Counted from the first letter of the stretch, positions 1,281-48,205 are shown. The stretch: DNA of 64,000 nt from a virus (IMGVR_UViG_2609459856_000007:1-64000); one strand, 5' to 3'. Made by a program: numbers and translations. The notes: a model not told the origin generated them from the sequence alone.

Positions 1281-1308
1281 AATAAAAAAGCTCCCGAAGG
1301 AGCTTTAA
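1281..1308 (-). terminator. rho-independent terminator downstream of the minus-strand operon ending at 1326
   Basis: Hairpin GCTCC-TTCG-GGAGC followed by a T-run when read on the minus strand. Confidence 0.6.
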
Positions 1309-1325
1309 AATACAAGGGATGACTC

Positions 1326-1835: not shown

Positions 1836-1846
1836 ATAAAATCCTT

Positions 1847-3837: not shown

Positions 3838-4080
3838 GGCACTTGTGTGAATCCCTTTTCGGAAGAGATTTTATTGAAAGTCACTTGTTGACTTTCTCGC
3901 GAAAAGTAATTTTTTAAATTTTTTGTGCGGGGAAGTGGACGGTGAATGCAGGCGTTAAATCGTGGGAATTTCAGTCTGAAATTATCCTAAAAAACACATG
4001 CAAATCATAAGGTTAGTAATGAAATTAGTGCGGGACATTTTAGGAGGGGGAGGGGCTAACACCACCTCCCACCAGCGGGA
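3838..4080. promoter_or_regulatory. parS: putative parS centromere region of the P1-type partition system
   Basis: AT-rich noncoding stretch directly downstream of parB with ATTTCA-type heptamer-like boxes and TCGC(G/C)A hexamer-like boxes; position as in P1 parS. Confidence 0.45.
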
Positions 4081-5046: not shown

Positions 5047-6254
5047 GCCGCCTCACCCCTAACAAACTCAATTCGATCAAACACAGCCTTAGTGAAACGC
5101 TCGGCCTCGGTTCGTGCCTTCTTCAGCGCCTCTGCACTGCCTGGATACGATTGCGGGTTGGCACTGATTACGGTGTCGAAAGACTCGCCGCATCGCTCAA
5201 ATCCATCCAGACGAGGCAGAGAAGAGTCCAGAATGTTGCTGGCGTAAACCTCACGCGCAAGGCTGTGTGATGTCTCGTGATCTCGCTTGCCGGTCATCTT
5301 CGACATAAAACCAATGCTGGCGCTTAAACGCGGTTCTACGCCTTCCTCCTCCAGTTGCTCCAGCATTTCTGGCAGACGGGTGAGATATTTCAGTGTTGAG
5401 TGGAAGTCAACCTGGGCTGGTGGGGTAGGGGTAAGCAGCAAATCGCTGGCCGCCAGACCGTTGAGCAGGAACGGATCCAGGTGTGGACCGGTATCAATAA
5501 AGATAAAGTCATAATCATCCGCAACACGATCAATGATATTGCGTCGAAGGATTTCGTACTGATTTTGTCCGGGAAGATGCTCTTCAACCAGCTCTTTCCA
5601 TTGGCTGGCAACAAAGCCATCGTCGATAGAGGCTGGAATCACGTCTACGCCAGGAACGATGGTCGGACGAATCACCTCTTTGCGTAGCGTCTCCGCGTCC
5701 AGGTCGTTCAGCATCGCCTGCGCGGCGGTTTCCAGGATGGAACCAATACTGTGAGTATGGTCGAGGAACATTGTGCTGGATGCCTGAGGGTCAAGGTCAA
5801 TTACCAGAATGCGCAGATCGTGACGCAGTAAATCCTGATGCACACGCAGAGCGTGCGCCAACGTGACTGTGGAAACCGTTTTGGATACGCCACCCTTCAG
5901 GTTTACGACAAAAATAACGTAAGGCGATTTGTGAATGTCGCGATATTTGGGGATCTTACGGTGGGCATAGATATCAATGACGTTCTGGATGGTCAGCGCG
6001 TACTGTTCAACGTTACCGACCTGTTTCTTGTTGAACTGGTACCCATCATCTTCCATCTCTTTGATGGCCTGCTCCACAATGCGGCGGCTCAGCTTCGGCA
6101 ACTTTGCCACAGCGTTACGAGTGAACGTCTGATAATACTCGGTCTGATTGAACTCTTTGCGCTGATCTTCAATATCCTGACTCATGGCCTTAAGTAATGC
6201 GCTTGCACGAAGAGCTATGGTGCCGACACCGCCGTAATCGCGTTTCATCATCAT
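5043..6254 (-). CDS. parA: ParA partition ATPase (type Ia, with N-terminal regulatory extension)
   Basis: 403-aa ORF; deviant Walker A NLKGGVSKT; P1-ParA-like length and C-terminus (LPRLDGFERCGESFDTVISANP). Confidence 0.9.
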   Translation of the reverse strand: MMMKRDYGGVGTIALRASALLKAMSQDIEDQRKEFNQTEYYQTFTRNAVAKLPKLSRRIVEQAIKEMEDDGYQFNKKQVGNVEQYALTIQNVIDIYAHRKIPKYRDIHKSPYVIFVVNLKGGVSKTVSTVTLAHALRVHQDLLRHDLRILVIDLDPQASSTMFLDHTHSIGSILETAAQAMLNDLDAETLRKEVIRPTIVPGVDVIPASIDDGFVASQWKELVEEHLPGQNQYEILRRNIIDRVADDYDFIFIDTGPHLDPFLLNGLAASDLLLTPTPPAQVDFHSTLKYLTRLPEMLEQLEEEGVEPRLSASIGFMSKMTGKRDHETSHSLAREVYASNILDSSLPRLDGFERCGESFDTVISANPQSYPGSAEALKKARTEAERFTKAVFDRIEFVRGEAA

Positions 6255-6359
6255 CTCCTTATCATTTCGTATGAGTGAATTGTACGTTTGATTCTGCTAC
6301 GTGCAACTTTTTTTGATTCGTGCGTCAATTATTGCACGTAAAGAAATGGCGATGAGGCC

Positions 6360-6650
6360 ATTAGATGTGTGCTGGAGGGATGATGCAGGACCAGAATGTG
6401 CGATAGAGGGAAGTCGCATTGAATTATGTGCTGTGGAGGGATCGCTGGTATCAAATATGTGTGCTGGAGGGAAAGATAGAAGATTAGATGTGCGCTGGAG
6501 GGAAACTTGGATGGTTAGATGTGTGCTGGAGGGAATGTCTTGGCAAACTGCGTGGCGCAACCCTCCAGCGCACACCAAAAACAGGAAAATGGGCAGGCAT
6601 TCCCGGCAGCGCACATTTTTCAAATGCAGCTGCCCTCCAGCACACACTTA
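6360..6650. repeat. incA-like iteron array downstream of repA (about 8-9 copies of a 19-bp iteron, both orientations)
   Basis: Repeated GATGTGTGCTGGAGGGAAA-like units at about 6364, 6425, 6457, 6484, 6516 and inverted copies at about 6561, 6600, 6627. Confidence 0.8.
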
Positions 6651-7508
6651 TTCGGGAAGTTTCAGCTTTGGATTGCGAGAATGGACGATTACAAAACTTT
6701 CCCGGCCTTTCTTCTCAATTGAACAGTCGAGATAGCCGATTGTTTTAAGCTGTTCTATCGCTTTCTTAATGATACGGTTTTGCTCGCCAACAGCTGACTG
6801 CAAAGCCAGGCGCTCACGGATTCGCGCGAACGATAGCGGCAACGGGTTCTGCGGAAGGCTTTCGATGAAAGTGTAAATGGCTTGTGCAGCTTCTTTCTTC
6901 GGAAGGGCACGCAAGGCGTGGTGTTGCAACAGAACGCGATAATCAAGCTGGAACAGCTCCCAGAGCTTCGAATCGGCCTCCAGCTCTATCAGATCAAGGT
7001 CAGCATCAAAACGCCCGACCTTCAGCAGACCAGTCTGATAGCCGCCTTTAGCATCTTTTCCGCGCTTAAAAGCGATACCCTTGTTACGCAAGCGTCCAAG
7101 TGATTCATGAATGGTTAAACGCAGTTTCGCATCCAGACGTTTTGAGGGGAAACCACAGGCTTTAGCGAACTCCTGAAACGATAACTGGATGGTGTTTGAA
7201 GAAAAGCCGTATTTGCTGAACGCGTAGATGACACCGATCCACGTTTTGAAATCAGTATCCATATCGAGTCGAGGACCAGTGATTTTAATATCATCGTAAC
7301 CCTCGGCTTTAGCTATCTCCAGCTGGGAAAACGCTTTGGTGGCATCAATCTCTTTACTTTCTCCTTTGCTCTTTGATGGCTTCGGAACGAATACCCCCAA
7401 GCGCATCAACGCCACAGGCTGCACAGTGTTGTTTGAATTAACTGTTAGTTCTTTTGCCTTACTTTCAATGTCTGCGTAAAGAATATCGGAGATAAATGAT
7501 TGATTCAT
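6648..7508 (-). CDS. repA: RepA replication initiator (P1/RepFIB-type, iteron-binding)
   Basis: 286-aa ORF flanked by iteron arrays on both sides. Confidence 0.9.
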   Translation of the reverse strand: MNQSFISDILYADIESKAKELTVNSNNTVQPVALMRLGVFVPKPSKSKGESKEIDATKAFSQLEIAKAEGYDDIKITGPRLDMDTDFKTWIGVIYAFSKYGFSSNTIQLSFQEFAKACGFPSKRLDAKLRLTIHESLGRLRNKGIAFKRGKDAKGGYQTGLLKVGRFDADLDLIELEADSKLWELFQLDYRVLLQHHALRALPKKEAAQAIYTFIESLPQNPLPLSFARIRERLALQSAVGEQNRIIKKAIEQLKTIGYLDCSIEKKGRESFVIVHSRNPKLKLPE

Positions 7509-7554
7509 ATTACTTTTTCCGAATTATGTGGATAGTTTTTATAAGTGATGATAA

Positions 7555-7670
7555 CTACCCAGGCTTTCCCGTCAGCACACATCCTATATCCCGCCAGCAC
7601 ACATTAGCAACCCGTCAGCACACATTTTTATCCCGCCAGCACACATCGTTTTCCCTCCAGCACACATCGC
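7555..7670. repeat. incC-like iteron array (5 direct copies) overlapping the repA promoter/origin
   Basis: Five evenly spaced copies of CCAGCACACAT-containing 19-bp units, the reverse complement of the incA iteron. Confidence 0.8.
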
Positions 7671-7679
7671 GATACACTT

Positions 7680-7790
7680 CTAGGCCAGACGTGGCGCGGC
7701 CTGCAACGATCAGGGATCTATATGGATCTAATTGGGATCTGTATGGACCTAATTATTGGATCTATCCAGTGGATAATGTGGATAAGTGAA
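7680..7790. promoter_or_regulatory. oriR-like origin core: GATC cluster plus tandem DnaA boxes
   Basis: GATC sites between about 7715 and 7755; DnaA boxes AGTGGATAA (7768-7776) and TGTGGATAA (7777-7785). Confidence 0.7.
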
Positions 7791-7818
7791 AAACCGGCCA
7801 ACATAGCCGGTTGGAAGG

Positions 7819-8169
7819 AAGGGTATTATTCTACGCTTTCGATAAGAAGACCATGTTCATAACATTTAAGCTCATCGCCTTCGTACAGGAATTGGTATCC
7901 AATACCACCATTTTCATGGACATTAGGGAATAACTCATAACTCACTGAAGAGCAAATCACACCAATGCAGCGATCAACGCCTTCTCGTTCTTCAGTGCTG
8001 AAAAAATCCTCTTCGGTAAGGACATGAGTACATTGCTCATCAGCATAGGTCGGAAATACATGCTCGATGCAATCCGGGTGTTTTAAACCAAGCTGATCGG
8101 CAAGCTCGAAAGCACGACGGTATTGTTCAGATCCTGGCTTGCCAACAGTGATTTGCTCAATTTTGTAGA
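7819..8169 (-). pseudogene. open reading frame without a start codon, continuing in another frame from 8170-8658; probable frameshifted gene
   Basis: 116 codons open on the minus strand with no ATG/GTG/TTG; the upstream ORF ends in a Gly/Ser-rich linker over a G/C tract. Confidence 0.3.
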
Positions 8170-8658
8170 TTAAAGTCGCTTTGTTGTTAGTGCTGGTGGG
8201 GGAGTGGCAGTGCCGCCGCCTGAACCAGAGCCTGACGAGCTTCCTGAGCCAGTGTTAAGGGTCTGGTTAATCTCCCCCATAGCAGCGACTAAACTTGATG
8301 TATTAAGCGCGTTTACAGCGTCCTCAAGCGATTTAGTAATAGTCACATCACCAATGGCAATAGAGATCGGCAGTTCTGAAACTTCTCGCTCATTAGCACG
8401 ACAGTAAACATCCCAACCAATATCGAGTTGAAGGAGCATTGACAGATCAGCATAACCAGCCAACAGGTCCGCGTGCTGAGTTGCCAGCCCTCCAATATTC
8501 GTTAAACCGGTTGCGGTTGTTCTGATCGTTGAAACATAGCTGGTAATAGTGTCGGGATAGACAATTGTATCCAGAATTAATCCGGTCAATTCTTCTGCAA
8601 GCAGTTTTGCTGTGTTAGCACTGTTTCGTGCCGATGTTATGGCACCAGGTGTTTTCAT
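8170..8658 (-). CDS. hypothetical protein with C-terminal Gly/Ser-rich linker
   Basis: ORF 8170-8715 in the track; internal ATG at 8658 gives an ATGA overlap with the stop of the upstream gene. Confidence 0.45.
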   Translation of the reverse strand: MKTPGAITSARNSANTAKLLAEELTGLILDTIVYPDTITSYVSTIRTTATGLTNIGGLATQHADLLAGYADLSMLLQLDIGWDVYCRANEREVSELPISIAIGDVTITKSLEDAVNALNTSSLVAAMGEINQTLNTGSGSSSGSGSGGGTATPPPALTTKRL

Positions 8659-9008
8659 CCCACCGGCGGCGGCCAATTTTTTATATGCGGATAACTGGTA
8701 GTCTTTTTCCAGCATGATATCTCCTTACTTACCTGAACCAGGCCGTCTCCGGCTGCAACGGTAGAGCCGCATAAAACAGGATCACCAACGCATACGATCC
8801 CTTTCCCGTTGACGGTAAACCATGCCCTGGTTGATATAGCTTGCCCGCCGTGCGTGCTGTTCCCATCGGTATGCTGTGCATATTGCTTACCATCAACTAA
8901 CACTTCGACTCCGTTGACTTTAAGTAGTGGTTCGCTCTCTACGGGAGGCCTGGATGGGAATCCTCCGTGCCCCGAACAAATGCTGTCTTTTGTTGCAATA
9001 CTTGCCAC
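8655..9008 (-). CDS. PAAR-like repeat protein (putative spike-tip protein)
   Basis: 117-aa ORF with Gly/Cys-rich PAAR-like segments (ICSGHGG, VCVGDPVLCGSTVAAGDG); assignment by motif only. Confidence 0.35.
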   Translation of the reverse strand: MASIATKDSICSGHGGFPSRPPVESEPLLKVNGVEVLVDGKQYAQHTDGNSTHGGQAISTRAWFTVNGKGIVCVGDPVLCGSTVAAGDGLVQVSKEISCWKKTTSYPHIKNWPPPVG

Positions 9009-9105
9009 GTCATCACCAATGATTTGCTCTGATTTTCGTTATTTTAACTTAGGTTATTTGTGGTCTGCATGGCGTTTACTTATTGCAAAATTGCTATAAT
9101 AAATA

Positions 9106-9462
9106 TTGTTTTTTATGTCGTGTTTTCGGTACCATTCAGCCATCGCCCTTCAATGGGCATTTGTTTGGAGTCGTCAGATGCAGATGGAGCTAATAAGCCG
9201 CAAGGAGTTCGATAGCCGTGTAACCAGCGGTGAACTCGACAACTTGCAGGCTATCAAGGTGAAAGAAGGCTTTTGCCTCATTGGGAATCAGAGCGGAACA
9301 AATCACGTTTTTATGCTTCGCCGTACGGATTTGAAGCCATTTGTCTGGAAGAACGAAATTGGTCCCAGCTCATACGCTCAAACGAGGGGGTGCTACAACC
9401 TGGCCTTTTTCTACAAAGACGAGCTTTCTGTGGTTGATATTCAAGGGTTACAACATGTTTAA
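9106..9462 (+). CDS. hypothetical protein
   Basis: 118-aa ORF, no recognisable motif. Confidence 0.3.
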   Translation: MFFMSCFRYHSAIALQWAFVWSRQMQMELISRKEFDSRVTSGELDNLQAIKVKEGFCLIGNQSGTNHVFMLRRTDLKPFVWKNEIGPSSYAQTRGCYNLAFFYKDELSVVDIQGLQHV

Positions 9463-9652
9463 GCACTGGAAAAACATTTCTATTTATAAAGTTTCTTGTG
9501 AGGCGGATCTGACCGACTTAGAAGATAAAAATAAAATGATCCTATTCACGCCATGCGGTAGCCAGGATATGGCCAAGTTCGGTTTTGTATCGCCATTTGG
9601 TGATAATTCCGAAGTGATCGCTATGCATGGAAATGGCTTTACCCGATGTTAA
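9455..9652 (+). pseudogene. RdgC-like recombination-associated protein, N-terminal ~65-aa fragment
   Basis: MFKHWKNISIYKV...FTPCGSQDMAKFGFVSPFG matches the RdgC N-terminus as recalled, then terminates. Confidence 0.55.
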
Positions 9653-10037
9653 AGAACGTGAAGTCAGAGACGGCGTTCTGTGCTTCCGTCGTGTGGCTGA
9701 ACGTGGCATGGAGCCAAAAAATACGAATTCTCCCGAGTGGTGGGCGTGGCGCTGGTCCGGACATTTCGGCCTTTGCGAAGATGAGAATGAAATTGCCAGC
9801 GGCAATAGTGCATATGGTGCTCTGAACCTGGCTTTCCATATCGGATTCAAACATGTAGCCCTGGTGGGCGTTGACGCTACGCAAGAACCACGAGTTCACT
9901 CCGGCGGCACGCCAAAAAATCTAAGTCACCTACCTTTGTTATTCCAGTCTGCGCGTGAACAGATTGACGTTGTTTCATGCGGGAAAATGGGAGGTATTCC
10001 GCAGATGACTCTTAAAGAATGGCTGAAGAATACATGA
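9627..10037 (+). CDS. hypothetical protein
   Basis: 136-aa ORF; could be a remnant. Confidence 0.3.
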
Positions 10038-10330
10038 TGGCACCCACAATTTATCACCGTATCGACGGTACCAAATACAGGAATGTCTGGGTTGTTGGTG
10101 ATCTGCATGGTTGCTACACCAGACTGATGTCCGAACTCCATCGTGTGGATTTTGACCCGGCGCAGGATTTACTGATATCGGTCGGCGACCTTATCGATCG
10201 CGGTACTGAAAATGTCGAATGTCTGGAACTATTGCAGATGCCCTGGTTCAGGGCAGTGATGGGGAACCATGAGCGGCTGATGATTGATGCGTTAAGTCCA
10301 GATGGCAACGTGAATAAACAAATTGGGTGA
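10019..10330 (+). pseudogene. lambda-type Ser/Thr protein phosphatase, N-terminal half only (homology ends about 10315)
   Basis: Metallophosphatase motifs GDLHG, GDLIDRG, GNHE; alignment with lambda PPase as recalled ends at ...GNVN, followed by 4 unrelated codons and a stop. Confidence 0.8.
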
Positions 10331-10481: not shown

Positions 10482-10641
10482 TTTATGGTGTCATAAACTT
10501 AAATCTAGCGCCGGGTAGAACAAGTTAATCGAACGATGTAGCGGCCATTTAGGCGTTACAGAAAGAACAGAATTTTAAATTTATAGTGAAGCCGTTGCAG
10601 CAACTTTGTGGGGTGCAACCAACACTGAACAGGAAAAGAAA

Positions 10642-13065
10642 ATGGATCATAGTGTACATAACAAGCTCATCTCATTTATTTGGAACATTGCCGACGACTG
10701 TTTACGTGATGTGTACGTTCGCGGTAAGTACCGCGATGTGATTTTACCTATGGTGGTATTACGACGTTTAGATACGTTACTTGAACCCACCAAAGAAGCC
10801 GTGCTTGAAGAGGTCAAGTTCCAAAAAGAAGAGATGCAAGCCACGGAGCTTGATGATGAACCATTGAAGGCGGCTAGTGGTTATGTTTTTTACAATACAT
10901 CTAAATGGACCCTGAAATCCCTGTTCAACACCGCAACGAATAACCAACAGATATTACTCGCCAACTTTGAAGAGTACCTGCTTGGCTTTAGCGATAATGT
11001 TAAAGAAATCATTGAATGCTTTAACCTCAAGTCGCAAATTCGTCACATGGCCTCAAAGCAAGTCCTTCTTGATGTCGTCGAAAAGTTTGTTTCCCCTTAC
11101 ATCAACTTAACTCATGAAACGGTCGAAGACCCAGATGGCAACAAGATGCCAGCCCTTACTAACCTGGGTATGGGGTACGTGTTCGAAGAGTTGATCCGTA
11201 AGTTCAACGAGGAGAATAACGAAGAAGCCGGTGAGCACTTTACACCTAGGGAAGTGATTGAGCTGATGACACACTTGGTTTTTGACCCAGTGAAAGAGCA
11301 GCTACCATTGACCATGACCGTTTACGACCCTGCGTGTGGTAGCGGTGGTATGCTCACTGAATCTCAAAACTTCATTGAAGAGAAATACCCGAACGACAGC
11401 CGAGATATTTACCTTTACGGCAAAGAGATCAATGACGAGACCTACGCGATTTGTAAATCGGACATGATGATCAAAGGTAACAACCCTGAGAACATCAAGG
11501 TAGGCTCAACCTTGTCTACCGACGAGTTTGCGGCTTCACGCTTTGACTTTATGTTGTCTACCCCGCCATACGGTAAGAGTTGGGCGTCTGAACAGAAGTA
11601 CATTAAAGACGGCAGTGATGTGATTGACCCGCGTTTTAAGGTTAGCCTGAAAGACTATTGGGGAAATCTCGAAGTGGTGGATGCCACGCCACGTTCGAGT
11701 GATGGCCAGCTGCTTTTCTTAATGGAGATGGTCAACAAGATGAAAGATCCGAGCGTAAGTCCATTAGGCAGCCGGATTGCCTCTGTTCATAACGGCTCAT
11801 CGCTCTTTACCGGTGATGCGGGCGGTGGCGAAAGTAATATTCGTCGCTTCATCATTGAAAACGACATGCTAGATGCCATCGTTCAGTTACCTAATAACCT
11901 GTTCTATAACACTGGCATTACCACTTACATTTGGGTGTTGAGCAACAATAAACCTGAGGCGCGTAAAGGTAAGGTGCAATTAATTGATGCCAGCTTGCTC
12001 TACCGTAAGTTGCGCAAGAACTTAGGTAACAAAAACTGCGAATTTGCGCCTGAGCACATCACGGAAATTACCGATACTTACCTCGCGTGTAAGGATGTTG
12101 AAAGAGCACTGGATGCAAACAATGATCCTGTTGGCATCGCCAGTAAGGTATTCAGCAATGACGATTTTGGCTACTACAAAGTCACTATCGAGCGCCCAGA
12201 TCGCCGCAAAGCCAAGTTTACTCAAGATGCCATAGCCCCACTGCGTTTTGATAAGCAACTTAGTGAAGTGATGGAGTACGTGTACGCAGAGCACGGCGAA
12301 CGTGTTTACGAAAAAACTGGCTACGGGTCAGATCAGAAAAAGAGCTTCTTAAAATCCATCGAGAAAGACATTCTTTCTTGGTGTGAAGATAACGACATCA
12401 GTCTCAATGCTAAGGCTAAGGCCAAACTGCTTGATGTGAAACACTGGCTGGCGCTAAAAGCATTGCTTGAAACTGCACAAACGCTGATGGCTGACATCGG
12501 TAGCATTGAATTTGATGACTTCAATAGCTTTAAAACCCAAGTTGATAAATCGCTAAAAGCCCATGCTATTAAGCTTTCAGCACCTGAGAAAAATGCCATT
12601 CTTCACGCGGTGAGCTGGTATGACGAAACCGCCAAGAAAGTGGTTAAAAAGGTAGTTAAATTAACGGGTGATAAATTAAACGACCTGCTGGAGCGCTATG
12701 AGTGTGAAGTCGCTGACTTGCCAGATTTTGGTTATTACCCCGTTCCTTCAGCAGAAGGCGGTAAAAAAGGCGAGTATATCACTTACGAGACCAATTCAGA
12801 CCTGCGAGATACAGAATCTGTTCCATTAAAGCAAAGCATTTACCAGTACTTCCTAGATGAAGTGAAGCCTCATGTCGATGAAGCATGGATAAACCTAGAT
12901 ACGGTAAAAATTGGCTATGAAATCAGCTTCAATAAGTATTTCTACCGTCATAAACCGCTGCGTAGTTTAGAAGAGGTCGCAACCGACATCATCAACCTAG
13001 AACAAAAAGCCGAAGGTTTGATTGCGCAGATTCTTGGTGCGGAAGTAAAAAAGGTTCAGGGGTAA
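10642..13065 (+). CDS. hsdM: Type I restriction-modification methyltransferase subunit HsdM (long form with C-terminal extension)
   Basis: N6-adenine methyltransferase motifs (DPACGSGGM, STPPYG); track ORF starts at 10606 but ATG at 10642 with upstream GGAAAAG is the likelier start. Confidence 0.85.
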   Translation: MDHSVHNKLISFIWNIADDCLRDVYVRGKYRDVILPMVVLRRLDTLLEPTKEAVLEEVKFQKEEMQATELDDEPLKAASGYVFYNTSKWTLKSLFNTATNNQQILLANFEEYLLGFSDNVKEIIECFNLKSQIRHMASKQVLLDVVEKFVSPYINLTHETVEDPDGNKMPALTNLGMGYVFEELIRKFNEENNEEAGEHFTPREVIELMTHLVFDPVKEQLPLTMTVYDPACGSGGMLTESQNFIEEKYPNDSRDIYLYGKEINDETYAICKSDMMIKGNNPENIKVGSTLSTDEFAASRFDFMLSTPPYGKSWASEQKYIKDGSDVIDPRFKVSLKDYWGNLEVVDATPRSSDGQLLFLMEMVNKMKDPSVSPLGSRIASVHNGSSLFTGDAGGGESNIRRFIIENDMLDAIVQLPNNLFYNTGITTYIWVLSNNKPEARKGKVQLIDASLLYRKLRKNLGNKNCEFAPEHITEITDTYLACKDVERALDANNDPVGIASKVFSNDDFGYYKVTIERPDRRKAKFTQDAIAPLRFDKQLSEVMEYVYAEHGERVYEKTGYGSDQKKSFLKSIEKDILSWCEDNDISLNAKAKAKLLDVKHWLALKALLETAQTLMADIGSIEFDDFNSFKTQVDKSLKAHAIKLSAPEKNAILHAVSWYDETAKKVVKKVVKLTGDKLNDLLERYECEVADLPDFGYYPVPSAEGGKKGEYITYETNSDLRDTESVPLKQSIYQYFLDEVKPHVDEAWINLDTVKIGYEISFNKYFYRHKPLRSLEEVATDIINLEQKAEGLIAQILGAEVKKVQG

Positions 13066-13071
13066 GTCGTT

Positions 13072-14346
13072 ATGATGAAGATTTCTGAAATGCCGAAATA
13101 TGAGGTTTATAAGGATTCAGGTGTTGAATGGCTAGGGGATATTCCTGCGTCTTGGAGCTTATTAGCTAATAAGCACATCTTTCGCTTGAAGAAAAAACAG
13201 GTTGGAAAACGCTCAAGCGAATATGATTTGCTATCGCTTACTCTCAGAGGTGTGATTAAGCGTGATATGGAAAACCCAGAGGGTAAGTTCCCAGCAGAGT
13301 TCGATACTTATCAAGAAGTGCAGTGTGGAGATTTCATTTTCTGCTTGTTCGACGTGGAAGAAACACCCAGAACTGTTGGGTTGTCGCCATTTAATGGGAT
13401 GATTACTGGTGCATATACCGTTTTTGAACTAAATGACAATTTTGATAATAGGTTTTTATACTATTTTTATATGAACCTTGATGCAAAAAAGATGCTTAAA
13501 CCGCTTTATCGTGGCCTGAGAAATACAATTCCTAAAGATTCATTTCTGAGTTTTAAGACGTTTGTTCCTCCCCATGAGCAACAAACCCGTATCGCCAACT
13601 TCCTAGACAAGAAAATCGCTCTAATCGACGAAGCGATTTCGATCAAAGAAAAGCAAATTAATCTGTTAAAAGAACGTAAGCAGATCATCATCCAACAGGC
13701 GGTGACCCAAGGGCTTGATCCCAATGTGCCAATGAAAGACTCCGGTGTGGATTGGATTGGTAAGATTCCAGCGCATTGGAACTTAATGTCATTGAGATAT
13801 GCGTTTGAGTTTCTTAACAGTAGAAGAGTTCCAATAAGCGCAGTTGAGAGAGAGTCGAGACAGGGCGTATATCCGTATTACGGAGCAAGTGGTGTTATCG
13901 ATTATGTTGATGACTACATCTTTGATGAAGATTTAATCTTGATCGCTGAAGATGGCGCGAATTTGCTAAGCAAGTCAACACCATTGGCTTTTGTTGCAAC
14001 TGGAAAGTATTGGGTGAATAACCATGCACATATTATTAAGCCAAAATTTCATGGTTTTAAATACTGGGCCGAATTATTAAGCGGATTGGACTATACGGTA
14101 TATATTTCTGGTGCGGCACAGCCAAAATTAACAAGGGATCGTCTTGCAAGTGTATTGGTTCCAGTGCCACCAAAAGATGAAATTCAAGAAATAATTTCGT
14201 TCATTGAAGGAATTGAGCCAGATCTGAATCGCACGATTGATATCCAAAAGTCGCAGATTGAAAAGCTTAAAGAATACAAAACCACCCTGATCAACAGCGC
14301 CGTGACAGGAAAAATAAAAATCACCCCAGAAATGGTTGAGCAATAG
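13072..14346 (+). CDS. hsdS: Type I R-M specificity subunit HsdS
   Basis: 424-aa ORF between hsdM and hsdR with two-TRD-like repeated architecture and a conserved central coiled region. Confidence 0.8.
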   Translation: MMKISEMPKYEVYKDSGVEWLGDIPASWSLLANKHIFRLKKKQVGKRSSEYDLLSLTLRGVIKRDMENPEGKFPAEFDTYQEVQCGDFIFCLFDVEETPRTVGLSPFNGMITGAYTVFELNDNFDNRFLYYFYMNLDAKKMLKPLYRGLRNTIPKDSFLSFKTFVPPHEQQTRIANFLDKKIALIDEAISIKEKQINLLKERKQIIIQQAVTQGLDPNVPMKDSGVDWIGKIPAHWNLMSLRYAFEFLNSRRVPISAVERESRQGVYPYYGASGVIDYVDDYIFDEDLILIAEDGANLLSKSTPLAFVATGKYWVNNHAHIIKPKFHGFKYWAELLSGLDYTVYISGAAQPKLTRDRLASVLVPVPPKDEIQEIISFIEGIEPDLNRTIDIQKSQIEKLKEYKTTLINSAVTGKIKITPEMVEQ

Positions 14347-15533: not shown

Positions 15534-19252
<3,719 letters not shown>

Positions 19253-26381: not shown

Positions 26382-26906
26382 TTAAAACGGTAAAATCCGT
26401 TCGACCCAATCGAAGAGAACTATCGTTCGTCCGCGCTCGCCAACTCTCATTGCGACCTGACAGGCATCAACGCCTAACGAACACCCCTCAATTTCACGGC
26501 CATCCGCCATGTAGACCCTTATAGACTTTTGCGCCTCATGAGCTTGACGACAAATTTTGAAGAAATCGCGGCGTGATGGCCGATTGTCCACATAGTCAGG
26601 GTGTACAGTGAGCCTACCTGTAAACATCTTGTCCACTTCGACAGGTGTAATTGTTTCTATGGTGCTAACTCGCTCCAATGGAAGACGAACACGATGTTCT
26701 TTACTTCCTATAACGGGAGAAAGATCTAGCTTATTGCGTGCGGTAAGCAGACCAATAACGTAAAGACAAAACGTCTGACCATCATCGATCGTGACCCTTA
26801 CAGGTATATTCCTTGCCCGTAGGAACTGCAAACTAAACTCCACGTTAGAGTAGTCGCGGGGCCAGACCTCTGCTGGGATGCCGTATGTAATGTCTGTGAT
26901 CGTCAT
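26382..26906 (-). CDS. hypothetical protein (174 aa)
   Basis: ORF; start overlaps the upstream gene's stop (ATGA at 26906). Confidence 0.5.
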   Translation of the reverse strand: MTITDITYGIPAEVWPRDYSNVEFSLQFLRARNIPVRVTIDDGQTFCLYVIGLLTARNKLDLSPVIGSKEHRVRLPLERVSTIETITPVEVDKMFTGRLTVHPDYVDNRPSRRDFFKICRQAHEAQKSIRVYMADGREIEGCSLGVDACQVAMRVGERGRTIVLFDWVERILPF

Positions 26907-30300: not shown

Positions 30301-30999
30301 ATGTATTGTATCAAAAATATGGATGTGAAAATTACGATTCTACAGGTGGAAGTCGCGAACCTGCGTCCGAACCCCTGGAATACCAACTCCGTTGGGGCGC
30401 AAAACTTCGAAAAACTGAAAGGTTCCATCGAAAAGTTGGGCTTTTTTAAGCCAATTCTGGCGCGAGAGCTGGACGGCGGCATTTTTGAGATTCTCGGTGG
30501 CGAACATCGCTGGCGTGCCGCGATGGAGCAGGGCATTTCAACGGTTCCCGTCATCTCCGTGGGCAAAATTAACGACCTGGTGGCCAAACAGATGTCCCTC
30601 GTCGACAACGAGCGCTACGGCGAAGACGATCAGGTCGCTTTGCAGCGCTTAATCGAAGAAATCCAGTCTGAAATCGACTACCGGTTGTCCGATATCGCCC
30701 CGTATGACGACGAAATGGCGGCAACACTCGCCAAAGCGTCCGTTATCGATCTTGAAGCGCTGGAAGCGCTCTCCCGTGGCGATGACGAGCCGGTCGATGA
30801 GGACAAACGCGAGAAAACCGAGCGAGTCGGCGCTGAACACCAGACGATGCGCTTCAAGGTGACGTTTGATGCGTCAGATCGGGTCGCCGACACCATCAAA
30901 ACCATCATCAAAGAGCAGGGAATCAATACCGGTAACGAAATGGAGAACGCCGGGGAAGCCCTGGTGTGGCTGGTCGACTACTACAAGGAGCGTATGTAA
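30301..30999 (+). CDS. ParB-like nuclease (ParB/Srx N-terminal) domain protein with acidic C-terminal region
   Basis: ParB-box-like LGGEHRWRAA; 232 aa. Confidence 0.65.
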   Translation: MYCIKNMDVKITILQVEVANLRPNPWNTNSVGAQNFEKLKGSIEKLGFFKPILARELDGGIFEILGGEHRWRAAMEQGISTVPVISVGKINDLVAKQMSLVDNERYGEDDQVALQRLIEEIQSEIDYRLSDIAPYDDEMAATLAKASVIDLEALEALSRGDDEPVDEDKREKTERVGAEHQTMRFKVTFDASDRVADTIKTIIKEQGINTGNEMENAGEALVWLVDYYKERM

Positions 31000-31667
31000 T
31001 GACCAAAAACTTTGAAATCGTCTATCGAAACCCGGCAGAACTCATCCCGTATGAGATGAACGCCAAAAAACATGACGAACAGCAGATCCGCGATCTGGCG
31101 GCCGCCATCAAAAAGCGCGGTTTTGACCAGCCGATCACGGTCGACAAGCACGACGTCATCATTACTGGCCACGGTCGTCGCGAGGCGGCTCTTCTGGCTG
31201 GTCTGGAGCGTGTGCCGGTCATTGTTCGCGACGATCTGAGCGAAGAAGAAGTGAAGGCTAAGCGTCTGGAAGACAACCGCCTGGCCAGTATTGACTACGA
31301 CGCCATCAAATTGCAGCAGGAACTGGAATCCCTGGTGCTGGGCGACGTCGAGGTCTTCGGTTTTGAAGAGCGCGAGCTGAACGTGCTTGTCGGCAGCATG
31401 ACCGAAGAGATGGAAACCGGCTCTCTGGTGCTCGATCTGGGCGAAGAGACGGAGCGCCAGAAGGAAGAGCACACCGAGATCAGTCGCGAAGTGGCCTCTG
31501 AAGAAGTCCGCGTCATCGACGTATTGGGCTTTAAAACGCTCCCTGCTGGCTCTGCCATTGTGGTTGGGGATTTGCTTGCCCACATGGAAGAAATCACGGG
31601 AGAGAGCGGGGTAGACGCTTTCGTGGCGTATGCGGAGAAAGTTTCTTCTGGTGAGCTGGCCGCATGA
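30999..31667 (+). CDS. ParB-like domain protein, paralogous to the preceding gene
   Basis: ITGHGRREAA motif; ATG at 30999 with AAGGAG ribosome-binding site overlapping the upstream stop. Confidence 0.65.
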   Translation: MTKNFEIVYRNPAELIPYEMNAKKHDEQQIRDLAAAIKKRGFDQPITVDKHDVIITGHGRREAALLAGLERVPVIVRDDLSEEEVKAKRLEDNRLASIDYDAIKLQQELESLVLGDVEVFGFEERELNVLVGSMTEEMETGSLVLDLGEETERQKEEHTEISREVASEEVRVIDVLGFKTLPAGSAIVVGDLLAHMEEITGESGVDAFVAYAEKVSSGELAA

Positions 31668-42954: not shown

Positions 42955-43476
42955 TTATTCTTCGAACAATTTTTCGATAGATTTTGTTGGATAGAACAAA
43001 GAACGATCGTTGTTACCAACCAGCTGGATAAAGCCCAAACTTTTATAAAACGCCCTGGCTTTATCGTTCAACGCCTCAACGAAAAGCCCATGAATGCCTA
43101 CCGCAAGAGATGCATTGTACACAACACGCATTGCGTGAGTTACAAGCATTGAGCCAAGCCCCTGACCTTGAAGAGATTTGTCCAAAGCCAGTCTGCCTAA
43201 AGTGATACTTGGGACATGCCGATAAGGCACTTTCTTTTGCTGACTCTTTGAAGGTAAGTTTTCTTTCTCAAAGCAGCTGCCTGACAAAGTGTAATAACCT
43301 AATACCTTTGGTATTTCTTCTTTAGTGCAAAGCACATAAGCGCGAAGAATTTTTCCTTCATGCTGTCTTTTTAAGTGGTTGGTCAAAAATGCGTTTAGTG
43401 ACTCTTCGCCGCAATCAAAACCGTTTAGATCATAATCTTTCTCTCCAGAGAAAATCTCGATCGTCGTATTGCTCAC
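42955..43476 (-). CDS. GNAT-family acetyltransferase toxin (TacT/AtaT-like)
   Basis: 173-aa GNAT ORF (LGRLALDKSLQGQGLGSML) paired with a DUF1778-type gene. Confidence 0.7.
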   Translation of the reverse strand: MSNTTIEIFSGEKDYDLNGFDCGEESLNAFLTNHLKRQHEGKILRAYVLCTKEEIPKVLGYYTLSGSCFEKENLPSKSQQKKVPYRHVPSITLGRLALDKSLQGQGLGSMLVTHAMRVVYNASLAVGIHGLFVEALNDKARAFYKSLGFIQLVGNNDRSLFYPTKSIEKLFEE

Positions 43477-43483
43477 GAGTAAA

Positions 43484-43753
43484 TTACTCCATGCTTTTCA
43501 GACGATTGGCAGCTCGTTTCAGCTTGTCGTTCGGTGCCGGAGGATTGCTTATAGCATCCATAACCAGATTCCAGGACTCTTCACTTAGAACCAGTCTACG
43601 GTGTTGCTCTATCACCTTCACGGCACGTTCGGATGCACTGCTAACCATGAACTGGGTAATGCTCTGGTTAGACATTGCGGCAGCTTCCTCGATGATGCTT
43701 TTATCGTCATCGGTTAATCTCAAATCGATGCGCTGCTTTTTCAGTGCGGACAT
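43484..43753 (-). CDS. DUF1778-type antitoxin (TacA/AtaR-like)
   Basis: 89-aa ORF immediately upstream of the GNAT gene on the same strand. Confidence 0.7.
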   Translation of the reverse strand: MSALKKQRIDLRLTDDDKSIIEEAAAMSNQSITQFMVSSASERAVKVIEQHRRLVLSEESWNLVMDAISNPPAPNDKLKRAANRLKSME

Positions 43754-44072
43754 GTGTACCCCCTGATGGCCGGTGATGTAGGAAGGCCATCATTGCTCTC
43801 TATTTAAACTGAGTTTTCGACTCAAAGGTTATTTAACTGGGCTATAGCCCATTGCGTATGTGTCATCAAATTGTGTACGGCAATTTACCGTACACGTAAT
43901 ATAGAGATGATTGTCACTTTTTTCAACAGACAAATGAAAACAGTTACTAGCAATAGGCAATAACAACCTACTAAATAACCTTTACACCGCAGCCGTAGGC
44001 ATTTAGGCTATATCACATATAAGAAAACAAGTTGTTTCAGACGATAATTATATACGCAAAGGGAACTCTCCA

Positions 44073-44741
44073 ATGACCAAGATCTTTGTGGTTGGCGGCA
44101 CAAAGGGCGGGCCTGGCAAATCCACTGTTGCCCAGCAAATTGCCGTTTGCCTGAAAGTCAAAAAGAAGAAGAAGGTTTATATCACTGATATAGATATTCA
44201 GCGCACGACAACAAGCTGGTGTGAAGACCGTCGACAGAACGAAGACCTTGAGCTGATTCCTTTTGCATACGTTCAGGATGACATCATTAAGCACCTAAAA
44301 TCGCTTCAGGGTAGAGCTGAGTTTGTAGTGGTAGATGCTGGTGGCTTTGACTCCGAAATTCAGCGACAAGCGATGCTGATGGCCGACGTTATCATTATCC
44401 CGCTTCGTCCTAAGCGTCGTGATTTGAAATCTCTGCGTGACATCGATCCTATTATCGACAATGTTCGTAATGTAAACGATAAAGTGAAGGTCCGCGCGGT
44501 CATGAACCAGTGCCCGGCTTTGCCATCACAAGTGTCTCGCATTTTGGCGGCTAAAGAGATTGTCGAGACGGTTGGCATCGAGTCTGCGCCAGTCAATTTA
44601 TATAACCGCAACGTCTATGATGATGCGGAAGAGTCTGGTCGTTCTATCTTTGAAATGACCGGTAGCGAGCGCGACAAAAAGGCGGAAGCCGAGTTTGAAG
44701 AATTTGTAGATTATCTGTTGAGTCTGGAGGAAGAAGAATAA
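44073..44741 (+). CDS. ParA/ParF-like small partition ATPase (type Ib)
   Basis: Deviant Walker A GGTKGGPGKST; 222 aa; operator motif at 44024-44038. Confidence 0.75.
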   Translation: MTKIFVVGGTKGGPGKSTVAQQIAVCLKVKKKKKVYITDIDIQRTTTSWCEDRRQNEDLELIPFAYVQDDIIKHLKSLQGRAEFVVVDAGGFDSEIQRQAMLMADVIIIPLRPKRRDLKSLRDIDPIIDNVRNVNDKVKVRAVMNQCPALPSQVSRILAAKEIVETVGIESAPVNLYNRNVYDDAEESGRSIFEMTGSERDKKAEAEFEEFVDYLLSLEEEE

Positions 44742-45100
44742 TGTCCATGAAAATGGGTGACCTAGCAAAGCGCAAAGAGCCTGATGCACCGGCCAAGAAC
44801 ACAACTCCTTTGCGCCAACCAGTCAGACCACAGGGACGCCCGACTCGTGGCAAAGAGAAAATTAAAAGCCGCACAATGTCACTGGAGGACGAATACTTCG
44901 AACTGCTGGAAATGATGAAGTTCATCCCTCGTTTCGAGAAGTTCACCCGTTCTGACGTGATTCGCGCAGCCATTTTCCATCTGGCAGAGAAGTCACCGCA
45001 GGAAATCGAGGACATCGTGAAACTTAACGAGGCGATCACAGCTGCCGATGTCACGATGCGTACCGATGAAATCAAACGAGAGTTGATGAAGAAAGGTTAA
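44741..45100 (+). CDS. ParG-like centromere-binding protein (putative)
   Basis: 119-aa ORF translationally coupled to the ParA-like gene; basic N-terminus. Confidence 0.5.
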   Translation: MSMKMGDLAKRKEPDAPAKNTTPLRQPVRPQGRPTRGKEKIKSRTMSLEDEYFELLEMMKFIPRFEKFTRSDVIRAAIFHLAEKSPQEIEDIVKLNEAITAADVTMRTDEIKRELMKKG

Positions 45101-45152
45101 AAATTATGCATTGGCGCAATGTACGCGCCAATGCATAAGTACAGTGTCAGCT

Positions 45153-45920
45153 TTATGCCGCGCTAACACTATGTTCATTCCTAACCACCCCAACCTTCAC
45201 AAAAGGGCTGCCGTAGCTTGGTGGCTTCTTGATTAATTTGCCTACATACAGTTTTCTAATATGCTCATCGGCTATTCTGCCAACAAATTCATAACGTTTT
45301 GTGTCGGGGCCAAGAGCTATATCCCTTGTAAAGTACTGCTGAGAACCGGCTTTGACCCAGCATTCAATCTGATAAACTTCCATTATCAGGCCCCCATATG
45401 TAGCGTAGGCATATTTGAGATTCTCGTCTCTTGGAACCTTTGCCCATACGCCACGCGTAGCTTCATATAATGCCAGAGCGGACATTCCTGACTTGTAGGT
45501 GCTGTTTAGCAGGAAGGCAAGACCGGCGTGCTCAGGAGCAATTTCAGTTTCCTCTTGCAGCACTAAGTGATGGTAGGCGTCCAGTGATATTCTGCCCATC
45601 ATGGAACCACTTCCTCGTACCTTATTCGTAAGCTCTCCGACCCCCATAAGGTCGATGCATGTCGCCTCAACAAGTTTGGCTGTGGTTTCATCCATACCAT
45701 GACGAAGAATATCTATGCCTAATTTTTTATTAGCCAAAAGTTCTTTGATCCGCATGGATTTGGGAGAGTCATCGGGATACTTGATGTGATCGAGACAACG
45801 AGTCGATTTGCCTTTTCCTATGTAAAACGGTCTTTTCATCTTGTCTTCTGTATCATAGAGACAGTAAACATAGTATTTAGCCTTATCCAATGATTTCGCG
45901 TATACCGATAAATCGTCCAT
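45153..45920 (-). CDS. GIY-YIG nuclease domain protein
   Basis: N-terminal YYVYCLYD...FYIGKGK GIY-YIG motif; 255 aa. Confidence 0.65.
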   Translation of the reverse strand: MDDLSVYAKSLDKAKYYVYCLYDTEDKMKRPFYIGKGKSTRCLDHIKYPDDSPKSMRIKELLANKKLGIDILRHGMDETTAKLVEATCIDLMGVGELTNKVRGSGSMMGRISLDAYHHLVLQEETEIAPEHAGLAFLLNSTYKSGMSALALYEATRGVWAKVPRDENLKYAYATYGGLIMEVYQIECWVKAGSQQYFTRDIALGPDTKRYEFVGRIADEHIRKLYVGKLIKKPPSYGSPFVKVGVVRNEHSVSAA

Positions 45921-46293: not shown

Positions 46294-46836
46294 GTGATGA
46301 AGACCTTCCAGGGTCGTGACATTACCGGTGCAGCAGAACGCCGGTATCTGTTCCCCATGCAGCTGCCAGCATCGGGTAAATTTCTCTACAACGGCCACAA
46401 TGCAGTCGGCAAACAGACTGTAGTTGTCTGTGAGGGGGCGTTCGATGTTATGGGGGTTAAACGAGCTATTTTTGATGAAGAAACATTACGCGATTACGTG
46501 GAACCGATAGGAACGTTCGGGATGCATCTATCTGGTAACACCACTCAGGATGCAGAAGATCAGTTGGGCGCGTTCCTGACGCTCAAGGCGCGTGGATTAC
46601 GTAATGTGATTATGATGTGGGATAGTGAAAAGCAAGCTATACGCAACACGATGGCCGCAGCCAGGCGACTGACCAGTATCGGTCTTAATGTCAAAGTAGC
46701 GTGTTTGGGCGAGGAAGGACTCGACCCCGGCGATGCGACACCGGGGCAGATTATCAAAGCCTACTATTGCGCAAAACCTTATTCACGACAGCTTGAACTT
46801 TTAAGCAAGGTAAAAGGCATAGCTGCATTAGTTTGA
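46294..46836 (+). CDS. Toprim-domain protein (primase-like), possibly 5'-frameshifted
   Basis: VVVCEGAFDVMG Toprim-like motif; an upstream 39-codon ORF (46203-46319) in another frame overlaps the start. Confidence 0.45.
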   Translation: MMKTFQGRDITGAAERRYLFPMQLPASGKFLYNGHNAVGKQTVVVCEGAFDVMGVKRAIFDEETLRDYVEPIGTFGMHLSGNTTQDAEDQLGAFLTLKARGLRNVIMMWDSEKQAIRNTMAAARRLTSIGLNVKVACLGEEGLDPGDATPGQIIKAYYCAKPYSRQLELLSKVKGIAALV

Positions 46837-47973
46837 ACCAGTATTAGTCACATACACATTGACCGAAAATGATTTAACTTCAGTATTGAAGTTGTCAGTC
46901 ATTACCGCGAGGTAGGCATTCTTGGTATCTCTGAATTGCTTCAGGATGATTTGAACGTTATCGGTGCAAACAAACGAGGTAGCCAGATTGCCTCCTTTCT
47001 CTGAAAAATCCTTCAGGAAGGTGCAGTCAACTTTGCCATCATTAGCGGTGAAGGTAGCATCATCACCCTGCCAGGTAAATGTAGCGTTAACGCCCTTATC
47101 AATGGATTTAGCAATAAGTCGCTGGGTGGCGGATTTTGTTTTGGCTTTGGAAGCCGGCGCTCGATATTTGCCGCTTTCTTTCAGTTCAGCAATGTATTTA
47201 CAGCCGCTTTTATCTCCTTTATCGCAAGCGGCCTGATAAAAATCGGCTGCTTTTTTATAATCCTTTTTAACACCCTCGCCATTCTCATACATAATGCCAA
47301 GATTTGTCATGGCATCGACGTTTCCGAGTTCAGCAGCTTTTTTATACCACTTAATTGCTTCGGCATCGTTTCGTTTAACACCTAAACCATCATCGTATAA
47401 GGTGCCTAATGCGAACATACCATCTGAACTACCTTGATCCGCCGCTTTTTTGTAATAAGCAAAAGCCTTTTTATAACTCTTTTGTACATTTTTACCATGT
47501 TGGTAATACACCCCAAGAAGGTAAGTAGCCTTAACATACCCGGCATCAGAGGCTAATTTGAAGTATTTAATGGCGAGTGCATGATCTACTTTACCAAGCA
47601 TCCCCTTTTGATAAATAGCACCAAGATTGTTGTAGGCTCTACCTTCACGGGCATCTCCCGCAAGTTTGTAGTACTCAACAGCTTTATTTAGGTCTTTATC
47701 TACACCCTCGCCAAATGTGTACATAACTCCAAGTGCATAATATGCTACTTTATCTCCCTTTTCTGCAGCTAGATCAATCCACTTCTTGGCCTCAACTACA
47801 TCCTTATCAAAACCATTGATACCATCAAAATAATTTGTCCCTAACTCACTTTGTGCTGCGGTATCCCCTGCGTTAGCGGCTTCTATCAGCGTTTGTTTAT
47901 TGTCTGCGTTAACGAATCCAGAGCTAAAAAGCAAAGTTAATGCCAGCAACGATGAAGATTTTATGTATTTCAT
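46828..47973 (-). CDS. secreted Sel1-like repeat protein
   Basis: Signal peptide MKYIKSSSLLALTLLFSSGFVNA; repeated Sel1/TPR-like units; track ORF extends to 48018. Confidence 0.7.
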   Translation of the reverse strand: MKYIKSSSLLALTLLFSSGFVNADNKQTLIEAANAGDTAAQSELGTNYFDGINGFDKDVVEAKKWIDLAAEKGDKVAYYALGVMYTFGEGVDKDLNKAVEYYKLAGDAREGRAYNNLGAIYQKGMLGKVDHALAIKYFKLASDAGYVKATYLLGVYYQHGKNVQKSYKKAFAYYKKAADQGSSDGMFALGTLYDDGLGVKRNDAEAIKWYKKAAELGNVDAMTNLGIMYENGEGVKKDYKKAADFYQAACDKGDKSGCKYIAELKESGKYRAPASKAKTKSATQRLIAKSIDKGVNATFTWQGDDATFTANDGKVDCTFLKDFSEKGGNLATSFVCTDNVQIILKQFRDTKNAYLAVMTDNFNTEVKSFSVNVYVTNTGSN

Positions 47974-48205
47974 ATTTTTTGTTCTGTTGATATAGGATGA
48001 ACAGTTTAGACGCGGCAAGCGTCAAGTGTGCGAAAAGGGTACTTAAATTTAGTTAATATGTCAGCTTTGTTGATTTAGTTTATGGTCGGTAAAGTTACTG
48101 GGAAACTAATAACCATAAGAAATAGTACGCCATTTAATTATTGTGGCACTGCTCGTGTTTTGATTAACTAATACCTGCGATAAATATAAATAAAGGGAAG
48201 CCAAC

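Follow-up and report, generated by a model that had tools for sequence, protein, structure and literature searches.

The ParF/ParG system of TP228 and the delta/omega system of pSM19035 represent the paradigm of type Ib plasmid partition. Omega of pSM19035 is a ribbon-helix-helix (RHH) global regulator that binds heptad arrays. In other partition systems the sites are spread over the molecule: the 12 OB operators of IncC/KorB of RK2 are dispersed 13-bp palindromes, and the SopAB system of phage-plasmid N15 uses dispersed centromeres (sopC sites). ParB of pCXC100, an RHH type Ib adaptor without sequence homology, sets a precedent for orphan partners (PMC3074162). We analyzed a two-gene locus at 44073-45100 of a 64,000-nucleotide viral DNA (IMGVR_UViG_2609459856_000007:1-64000; the whole stretch is called the window), in which a small ParA-type ATPase gene is followed by a gene for a 119-aa partner protein. 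The original prediction, made from the sequence alone, had described this pair as a second partition-like locus inside an inserted segment. Our analyses indicate that the locus is, on balance, probably the native type Ib-like partition cassette of SSU5-type phage-plasmids, brought into a plasmid prophage of the P1 type with an SSU5-derived segment of 50 kb.

The ParA-type ATPase, its partner and their distribution

The locus has the structure predicted for it, with a small ParA (Walker A KGGPGKST) and a coupled, basic 119-aa protein at 44-45 kb:

44073-44741, + strand: parA-type ATPase gene, 222-aa open reading frame (ORF), protein begins MTKIFVVGGTKGGPGKST
44741-45100, + strand: partner gene, 119-aa ORF, presumed centromere-binding adaptor

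The two ORFs overlap by one base, where the ParA stop and the partner start share the sequence TAATG. A GGAGG is located 10 nt 5' of the partner start.

In the ATPase, the Walker A motif occupies residues 11-18, with K11 as the signature Lys and K16 as the Walker A Lys. The P-loop begins at residue 8, and the 222-aa protein has no N-terminal DNA-binding, helix-turn-helix (HTH) or regulatory extension. Its closest PDB match is ParF of TP228 (4dzz, E=7e-11). The alignment pairs residues 9-199 with ParF 8-189 and covers all nucleotide-binding motifs, and the Walker A' and B motifs (ITDIDIQ and FVVVDAGG) line up with those of ParF. The ATPase also matched the full profile of NCBIfam ParA_partition (NF041546; E=3e-33, 115 bits) and PHROG 164, 'ParA-like partition protein' (E=4e-50). 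Its Pfam matches were MipZ (top), AAA_31 and CbiA. The MipZ match spans residues 4-132 only, the N-terminal P-loop half, of a 262-position profile. The minD model scored 27.6 bits, far under its cut-off (212.9). The C-terminus (LLSLEEEE) is acidic and has no MinD-type amphipathic membrane helix. Given the partial Pfam match, the low minD score, the acidic C-terminus and the plasmid-only locus, the ATPase does not fit the MinD/MipZ group. We interpret it as a small type Ib-style ParA (the ~200-230-aa class of ParF, delta and pB171 ParA) that, by analogy with the type Ib paradigm, would function in partition.

The partner has an overall pI of 9.56, which divides into a strongly basic part (residues 1-47, pI 11.4) and an acidic part (residues 48-119, pI 5.0). 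Alignments of the family revealed an invariant N-terminal MGDLAKR, including K10/R11, of which the most distant members retain G-x-L-x-K. A variable linker follows, and after it comes an invariant basic stretch, PxRxPVRPQGRPTRGKxKIKSR, that runs to IKSRTMS(L/I)EDE. Next is a pair of helices, the second of which starts with (T/S)RSDV(I/F)RAA. A helix start of this kind is a hallmark of RHH helix B, and the partner as a whole carries the RHH-like signature RTMSLEDEY...FTRSDVIRAAI. The predicted secondary structure of the protein is as follows:

Partner residues ~43-47, strand; 48-60 and 70-84, helices; two further C-terminal helices: probable RHH core

AlphaFold2 (AF2) monomer models had a predicted local distance difference test (pLDDT) score of 63 and 73, with residues 1-47 unstructured and residues 1-25 below 50. 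Weak RHH signals came from aCcr1 (E=2e-4, NCBIfam), from Pfam RHH_1 in two of the 13 partner-family members (E=0.005) and from an alignment with CopG that was in register (E=0.015). From these sequence features we consider an RHH core probable.

The original prediction had named the locus ParA/ParG type Ib. The first half of this name agrees with the ATPase, which is type Ib-style. The partner, in contrast, is no ParG homologue, and its likeness to ParG is an analogy of architecture only. Pfam ParG (PF09274) gave no match at E<=10 among the 13 partner-family members, and hhalign of the partner-family alignment against a 17-member ParG alignment returned a probability of 0.14%. A link to ParG, omega, CopG or any PDB chain was rejected, as no significant sequence match was obtained. 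The partner belongs to PHROG 5111, 'unknown function', and to no Pfam family. As judged by sequence searches, it is a narrow orphan family, with 25 clusters in a word-indexed search and 18 representatives in a profile search of 1.84 billion cluster representatives. In phage Cyrano (OV696614.1, CYRAN_29, our relative L001) the partner is labeled 'RelE/ParE putative toxin'. We rejected this label, which has no Pfam or NCBIfam support and is probably a mis-annotation.

The ATPase/partner pair is a backbone module of SSU5-type phage-plasmids and is not peculiar to the hybrid. In phage SSU5, the pair is SSU5_033/034 (86% DNA identity) and lies between the lysis and replication modules, a placement that is the same in phage Cyrano and Klebsiella phage pJN2-26. 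The pair's DNA was detected in 724 PLSDB plasmids. It was also detected in 264 of the 5,426 complete E. coli genomes, at 326 plasmid places and no chromosomal one. A tblastn search with the partner found 797 PLSDB plasmids, nearly all non-mobilisable, and no Yersinia plasmid. Among the matches listed, the plasmids are mostly ~105-115 kb and the ATPase gene adjoins the partner gene in nearly every case. Cassette and leader together share 99.9% identity with their counterparts in intact SSU5-type plasmids. In Morganella, Photorhabdus, Xenorhabdus and Moellerella, ParA is 51-53% identical and a partner homologue is located directly 3' of it, on contigs that are mostly ~100-110 kb.

The original prediction had suggested a comparison with relatives that carry one par locus. 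SSU5 is such a relative: its whole genome encodes a single ParA homologue, that of this pair, and no type Ia ParAB. In the 40-50 kb stretches examined of pTB212, of a 62-kb E. albertii derivative and of the 52-kb E. coli plasmid pRHB27-C06_3, the annotation lists no further ParA-type gene. The E. albertii derivative and pRHB27-C06_3 are defective and have no virion genes in the stretches examined.

Leader, promoter and the dispersed palindrome

The following features precede or close the operon:

43873-43895, no strand: palindrome GTGTACGG-N7-CCGTACAC, 5' of the invariant leader, unique in the window
43978-44043, + strand: near-invariant promoter/operator leader, from a 24-relative alignment
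43981-43986, + strand: likely -35 TTTACA, read from the sequence
43996-44000 and 44004-44008, + strand: TAGGC direct repeats, 8 bp apart, read from the sequence
44004-44009, + strand: likely -10 TAGGCT, 17-nt spacer, read from the sequence
44018-44023, + strand: alternative -10 TATAAG, read from the sequence
44025-44037, no strand: 13-bp palindrome AAACAAGTTGTTT of the family AAACAA-N1-3-TTGTTT, at ~+9 to +21 of the likely transcript and ~15 nt past the -10
45104-45138, no strand: hairpin with a perfect 14-bp stem between the 119-aa gene and a convergent GIY-YIG gene, from an inverted-repeat search

The promoter hexamers were assigned by eye, and a consensus promoter scan did not report them. 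In 24 diverse relatives, synteny is lost just 5' of ~43968, and from there to the ATG the sequence is nearly invariant. The 105 bp that precede the ATG have a mean identity of 87.6% among 32 relatives whose ParA is below 95% identity, compared to 82.7% for the coding DNA and 59.8% for the third codon positions of parA. These values place the leader under strong selection. Of the leader sequence, a K. pneumoniae relative with a partner 52% identical keeps only TTTAGGCTAT and the 13-bp palindrome. At the other end of the operon, the hairpin was listed by a terminator scan on the minus strand and is likely a bidirectional terminator that closes the operon.

Other candidate sites around the promoter were not retained. 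The TAGGC direct repeats were rejected as a conserved operator, with one copy only in the diverged K. pneumoniae relative. About half of the relatives keep the palindrome at 43873-43895 and the others lack it, so it is probably not essential to the cassette. A 12-nt inverted repeat, AAAGGTTATTTA, that flanks the intergenic region was discarded because its frequency in the window is at chance level.

The 13-bp palindrome was recovered as the shared operator motif of the original prediction. The AAACAA-N1-3-TTGTTT family has eight sites in the window, compared to 0.6 expected from shuffles, and all eight are within the SSU5-like segment:

19771, 20995, 21373, 21864, 23512, 23997, 44025, 57408, no strand: 13-bp palindrome sites in the window

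SSU5 (NC_018843) has 20 sites (0.36 expected) and P1 has zero or one. The window sites are ~11-15 nt past a -10-like hexamer, and an ATG follows 10-35 nt later in seven of the eight. They are part of a recurring unit that consists of an extended -10-like element TGnGATAAT, ~13 nt, AAACAA-N-TTGTTT, a ribosome-binding site and the ATG. The sequence GCCTT...TACA is often found 5' of this unit, and at 57354-57386 it is half of a perfect 12-bp hairpin. Genes behind the palindrome promoters encode a helicase, CobT, NrdB, a methyltransferase and many small proteins. Other sites are close to ant, or lie ahead of the terminase operon at the beginning of SSU5 (56 and 81). In this respect the sites resemble a regulon under a prophage master repressor.

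Two candidate regulators are encoded in the window. One is an XRE-type gene (56469-56867) that faces a palindrome-bearing promoter. The other is a 174-aa FljA-like repressor (26382-26906, - strand) that matches Pfam Flag1_repress (E=6e-69), the family of the FljA-type phase-1 flagellin repressor. The latter protein, whose SSU5 counterpart SSU5_121 is annotated 'transcriptional repressor', could regulate either the element or host flagellin. The palindrome is absent from the par promoter of the Morganellaceae relatives, which keep the gene pair. We also looked for another shared dispersed motif at these promoters as a substitute for the palindrome, and none was found.

In some Klebsiella-type IMG/VR relatives, tandem arrays are located 200-470 bp 5' of parA. 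Relative L076 has TTTTCAG (7 bp) repeated 11.6 times at 2188-2270, and relative L087 has the 14-bp unit TTTCAGTTTCTAGG repeated 19.6 times at 2029-2304. These arrays look like centromeres, and they are absent from the window and SSU5. The array unit is similar to the right arm and flank of the 13-bp palindrome (TTGTTTCAG).

Based on the type Ib paradigm of ParF/ParG and delta/omega, the cassette would operate as follows. A sigma-70 promoter (TTTACA-17-TAGGCT) would drive transcription of parA and the translationally coupled partner gene as far as the 45104-45138 hairpin. The partner may dimerize via its RHH core and bind plasmid DNA, and its long basic N-terminal arm would contact ParA, with the invariant tip (MGDLAKR, K10/R11) stimulating ATP hydrolysis. 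ParA-ATP dimers would cover the nucleoid, and partner-stimulated removal of ParA would create a gradient that separates the plasmid copies. The cis site is most likely within the near-invariant 66-bp leader (43978-44043).

The P1::SSU5 chimera and neighbouring genes

We compared the window with P1 and SSU5 using local BLAST. Identity to phage P1 is 95-99% over window 1284-10317 and 60418-64000. P1 homology ends at 10317 (P1 81058) and returns at 60418 (P1 81050), inside the phosphatase gene ppp, which bears out the inserted segment that had been predicted. The large-scale features are:

4081-6254, - strand: other partition system, type Ia, with parB at 4081-5046 and parA at 5043-6254
6648-7508, - strand: repA, on the P1 side, adjoining the type Ia parAB
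~3960-4040, no strand: parS-like region with an A-box, read from the sequence
10318-60417, no strand: SSU5-derived segment of 50.1 kb within the P1 ppp gene

The inserted segment is colinear with SSU5 except for large deletions and lacks the helicase and most structural genes of SSU5. SSU5 RepA is absent from the window, where its sole match is P1 RepA at 47% identity. The left junction is CGTGAATAA|ACAAATT and the right junction is GGTTAAT-CGTGCGTAA|CTGGCT, with a microhomology of 7/9. A transposon-type insertion of the segment was rejected, as the apparent 9-bp duplication (CGTGAATAA vs CGTGCGTAA) is imperfect and the ends carry no insertion sequence (IS). Neither junction was found in the 5,426 complete E. 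coli genomes or in 72,556 PLSDB plasmids, and no phage-collection record covers at least 80% of window 1-25000 or 40000-64000.

The par locus beside repA had been called P1-type. It does belong to the P1/P7 family and has a parS-like region next to it, but it is not P1's own. In tblastn against P1, RepA is 99.65% identical, whereas the adjoining ParA and ParB are 58% and 43% identical, and the locus is therefore a P1/P7-family type Ia system of other specificity. The partition module is thus swapped on an otherwise P1-like replicon. The marks of type Ia, a ~400-aa ParA that has an N-terminal HTH together with a ParB-family protein, are found at 4081-6254 and not at 44073-45100. A tblastn comparison between the two systems found nothing, in agreement with the proposal that two unrelated partition systems are on one molecule. 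That proposal had further explained them by a fusion of two replicons. The foreign 50-kb segment agrees with this, and a fusion of a P1-type with an SSU5-type element is a natural source of two par systems because the pair is the only ParA-type locus in its native hosts. However, the second replicon is incomplete, with no SSU5 RepA and large deletions, and the junctions have no clean target-site duplication.

The left end of the segment encodes a complete type I restriction-modification system (hsdM 10606-13065, hsdS 13072-14346, hsdR 15534-18551), and hsdR is followed by an IS3-family transposase fragment (18566-19252). Just past this fragment, the colinearity with SSU5 jumps from 57.9 kb to 90.6 kb, and RepA was therefore lost. 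Only the Toprim end of the SSU5 primase remains (46294-46836). The DnaB-like helicase gene is gone, and a gene for a Sel1-repeat protein (46828-48018, - strand) is in its place. With a primase remnant and a missing helicase, the SSU5 replication module is broken in the hybrid. On the P1 side, P1 65708 is joined to 80374 at window 9633-9654 via a ~22-bp overlap, so P1 hrdC through pmgP (ban, several tail and baseplate genes) are not at 9633-9654. Both P1 pieces are within a 2.2-kb span in the P1-like E. coli plasmid NZ_JBRNHF010000003.1, and the join may be an arrangement of this lineage.

Two adjoining proteins with a ParB N-terminal domain are encoded at 30301-31667 (+ strand). They are the counterparts of SSU5_125/126, adjoin a DEAD-box helicase gene 5' of the packaging genes and carry the SSU5 annotation 'ParB-like partition protein'. 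They are next to no ParA and are probably not centromere binders.

Directly around the par operon, a TacA (DUF1778) antitoxin and a GNAT TacT-type toxin are encoded divergently at 42955-43753 (- strand). The palindrome TGATGGCC...GGCCATCA, in the intergenic region common to this tacAT-type pair and the par operon, is a likely TacA operator. On the other side, convergent with the par operon, is a GIY-YIG protein gene (45153-45920, - strand) that matches Pfam LEM-3_GIY-YIG and the anti-phage defence gene PD-T4-3 (PADLOC, E=1e-23). SSU5 has other genes at this position, and 45153-45920 is therefore an accessory island. An anti-phage defence role for the ATPase/partner pair itself was dismissed, as PADLOC gave nothing meaningful for it.

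Explanations of the locus and comparison with known systems

Different features of the locus support its reading as a native SSU5 partition cassette. The full-length match to ParF, the ParA_partition and PHROG 164 matches and the set of deviant Walker motifs all suggest a partition ATPase. The parA-partner order is constant, the pair includes the sole ParA of SSU5, its occurrence is plasmid-only and the leader is conserved. The predicted disordered basic N-terminus, invariant tip and RHH-like signature would give the partner the architecture of an adaptor. Several results weigh against this reading. Centromere repeats, which the original prediction had proposed to look for, were not detected in 43400-45400 with TRF and a repeat finder, and searches elsewhere in the window, in SSU5 and in pTB212 yielded no centromere array, Rep iterons apart. 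The lack of a centromere, which that prediction had named as part of its own refutation, thus still counts against it on the computed data. The ATPase scores below the curated cut-off of NF041546 (115 vs 180 bits), and is therefore a relative and not an equivalog of that family. Fold searches with the partner were uninformative and its RHH fold is weakly supported. We found no experimental study of the module in the literature searched. In addition, the par promoter bears the palindrome of ~20 other SSU5 promoters, lytic-type genes included, which is odd for a plasmid-state operon.

This last paradox would be resolved if the partner itself bound AAACAA-N-TTGTTT, acting both as a plasmid-state global repressor of ~20 SSU5 promoters and as the centromere-binding adaptor. 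In this scheme the dispersed operators would double as centromeres for ParA. We regard this as a tentative idea that is rather unlikely to be correct. In its favor, the palindrome is present at the par promoter, at seven other window promoters and at the 20 SSU5 sites, and the repeat searches in the window, SSU5 and pTB212 left no other repeated site available as a centromere. The half-sites are 7 bp apart, centre to centre, and such a spacing is better suited to one RHH beta-ribbon in a single major groove than to a typical HTH dimer. Both the DNA-reading strand SRTMS(L/I)EDE and the par-promoter palindrome persist in the relative with a partner 52% identical. However, the fixed promoter geometry and the sites ahead of the terminase operon (SSU5 56 and 81) resemble what P1 C1 controls, a prophage master repressor regulon, and the XRE-type and FljA-like proteins are other candidates for that repressor. 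The Morganellaceae relatives keep the gene pair with no palindrome at the par promoter, and no covariation is available to exploit. If the partner were this repressor, it would control operons for replication, nucleotide metabolism, the anti-repressor and packaging, and lysogeny control would be fused with partition in an omega/KorB-like manner across a widespread clinical phage-plasmid family. The ATPase could also have a non-partition role and no centromere, in the positioning or timing of phage replication or assembly, in interference with host division (MipZ/MinD-like) or as a co-repressor with the small protein. ParA-like genes of some phages may serve other roles (Pfeifer et al., PMC7969092). 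Here, MipZ is the top Pfam match and some RefSeq records name the protein MipZ. The missing centromere array, the operator common to replication and nucleotide-metabolism genes and the location between the lysis and replication modules also fit such a role. Against it, the MipZ match is confined to the N-terminal half (residues 4-132) while the ParF alignment is full-length, the minD models are far under their cut-offs and the C-terminus is of the acidic type described above. Moreover, the defective 52-62 kb derivatives retain the pair in the stretches that lack virion genes, and neither these stretches nor the whole of SSU5 contain another recognisable partition candidate for a low-copy plasmid. 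We therefore consider a non-partition role improbable. Finally, the cassette could be a silent passenger in the hybrid, where the intact type Ia ParABS beside repA would do the partitioning and the SSU5 cassette would be redundant or crippled, having lost its true centromere or regulator when SSU5 DNA was deleted. The segment is indeed without RepA, helicase and most structural genes of SSU5, and no centromere array is present. Such a decay is very improbable given that both ORFs are intact, the cassette with its leader is nearly identical to that of intact plasmids and eight palindrome sites are kept. Under our preferred reading as a native partition cassette, the pair may still be active in the hybrid.

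The cassette appears to be a fairly ordinary module. Among the SSU5-type phage-plasmids are pHCM2 of S. Typhi and many ~110-kb plasmids of E. coli, Klebsiella and Enterobacter. The group is common among clinical isolates, and its members can bear resistance genes. Annotation of their ParA is widespread, and one recent survey relied on the protein as a marker for SSU5 (bioRxiv 10.1101/2025.09.12.675607). Stable inheritance of these plasmids presumably rests on the cassette, of which the partner is annotated 'hypothetical'. Defining the partner and the centromere would account for how a large group of plasmids is maintained and for its incompatibility, and would show whether a partition adaptor doubles as the global regulator of the element. 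The P1::SSU5 chimera is a concrete fusion of two phage-plasmids, with two partition systems and one replication initiator within the window.

Compared with type Ia ParABS of P1, P7 and pMT1, the cassette would perform the same job on the same molecule as the locus beside repA at 4081-6254. It differs in its proteins: the type Ia locus encodes a 403-aa ParA and a 321-aa ParB, and there is no tblastn match between the two ParAs. The type Ib ParA/ParB of pCXC100 provides a precedent for such an orphan partner, as its adaptor has an RHH fold without a recognisable motif and sequence searches miss it (PMC3074162). Unlike the cassette, pCXC100 has a Gram-positive host, unrelated sequences and experimentally defined centromere repeats.

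The cassette resembles ParF/ParG/parH of TP228 in its small ParA without an N-terminal DNA-binding domain, for which ParF is the best solved match. It also resembles it in having a small 3' partner, here with a basic N-terminal tail that is predicted to be flexible and with an RHH core that is probable, and in an operon under a site that overlaps its own promoter. However, the partner has no detectable ParG homology, is 119 aa compared to 76 aa for ParG, and has two extra C-terminal helices, and no parH-like array of short repeats is located 5' of the operon here. Delta/omega of pSM19035 likewise combines a small ParA with an RHH partner, to which the probable RHH-type partner here would correspond, and has a possible parallel in a dual role regulating several promoters, and some Klebsiella-type relatives have 7-bp tandem arrays 5' of parA as well. 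The differences are that the partner has no sequence similarity to a manually entered omega sequence and that the window has a single 13-bp palindrome per promoter, to which partner binding is putative, and no heptad arrays. KorB of RK2 and SopB of N15 belong to the ParB family of HTH proteins, and their ParAs, IncC and SopA, are larger, whereas the candidate binder here is a small RHH-like partner. The cassette nevertheless mirrors these systems in the layout of its sites, with a 13-bp palindrome dispersed over ~20 promoters including that of par, and SSU5 and N15 are both phage-plasmids.

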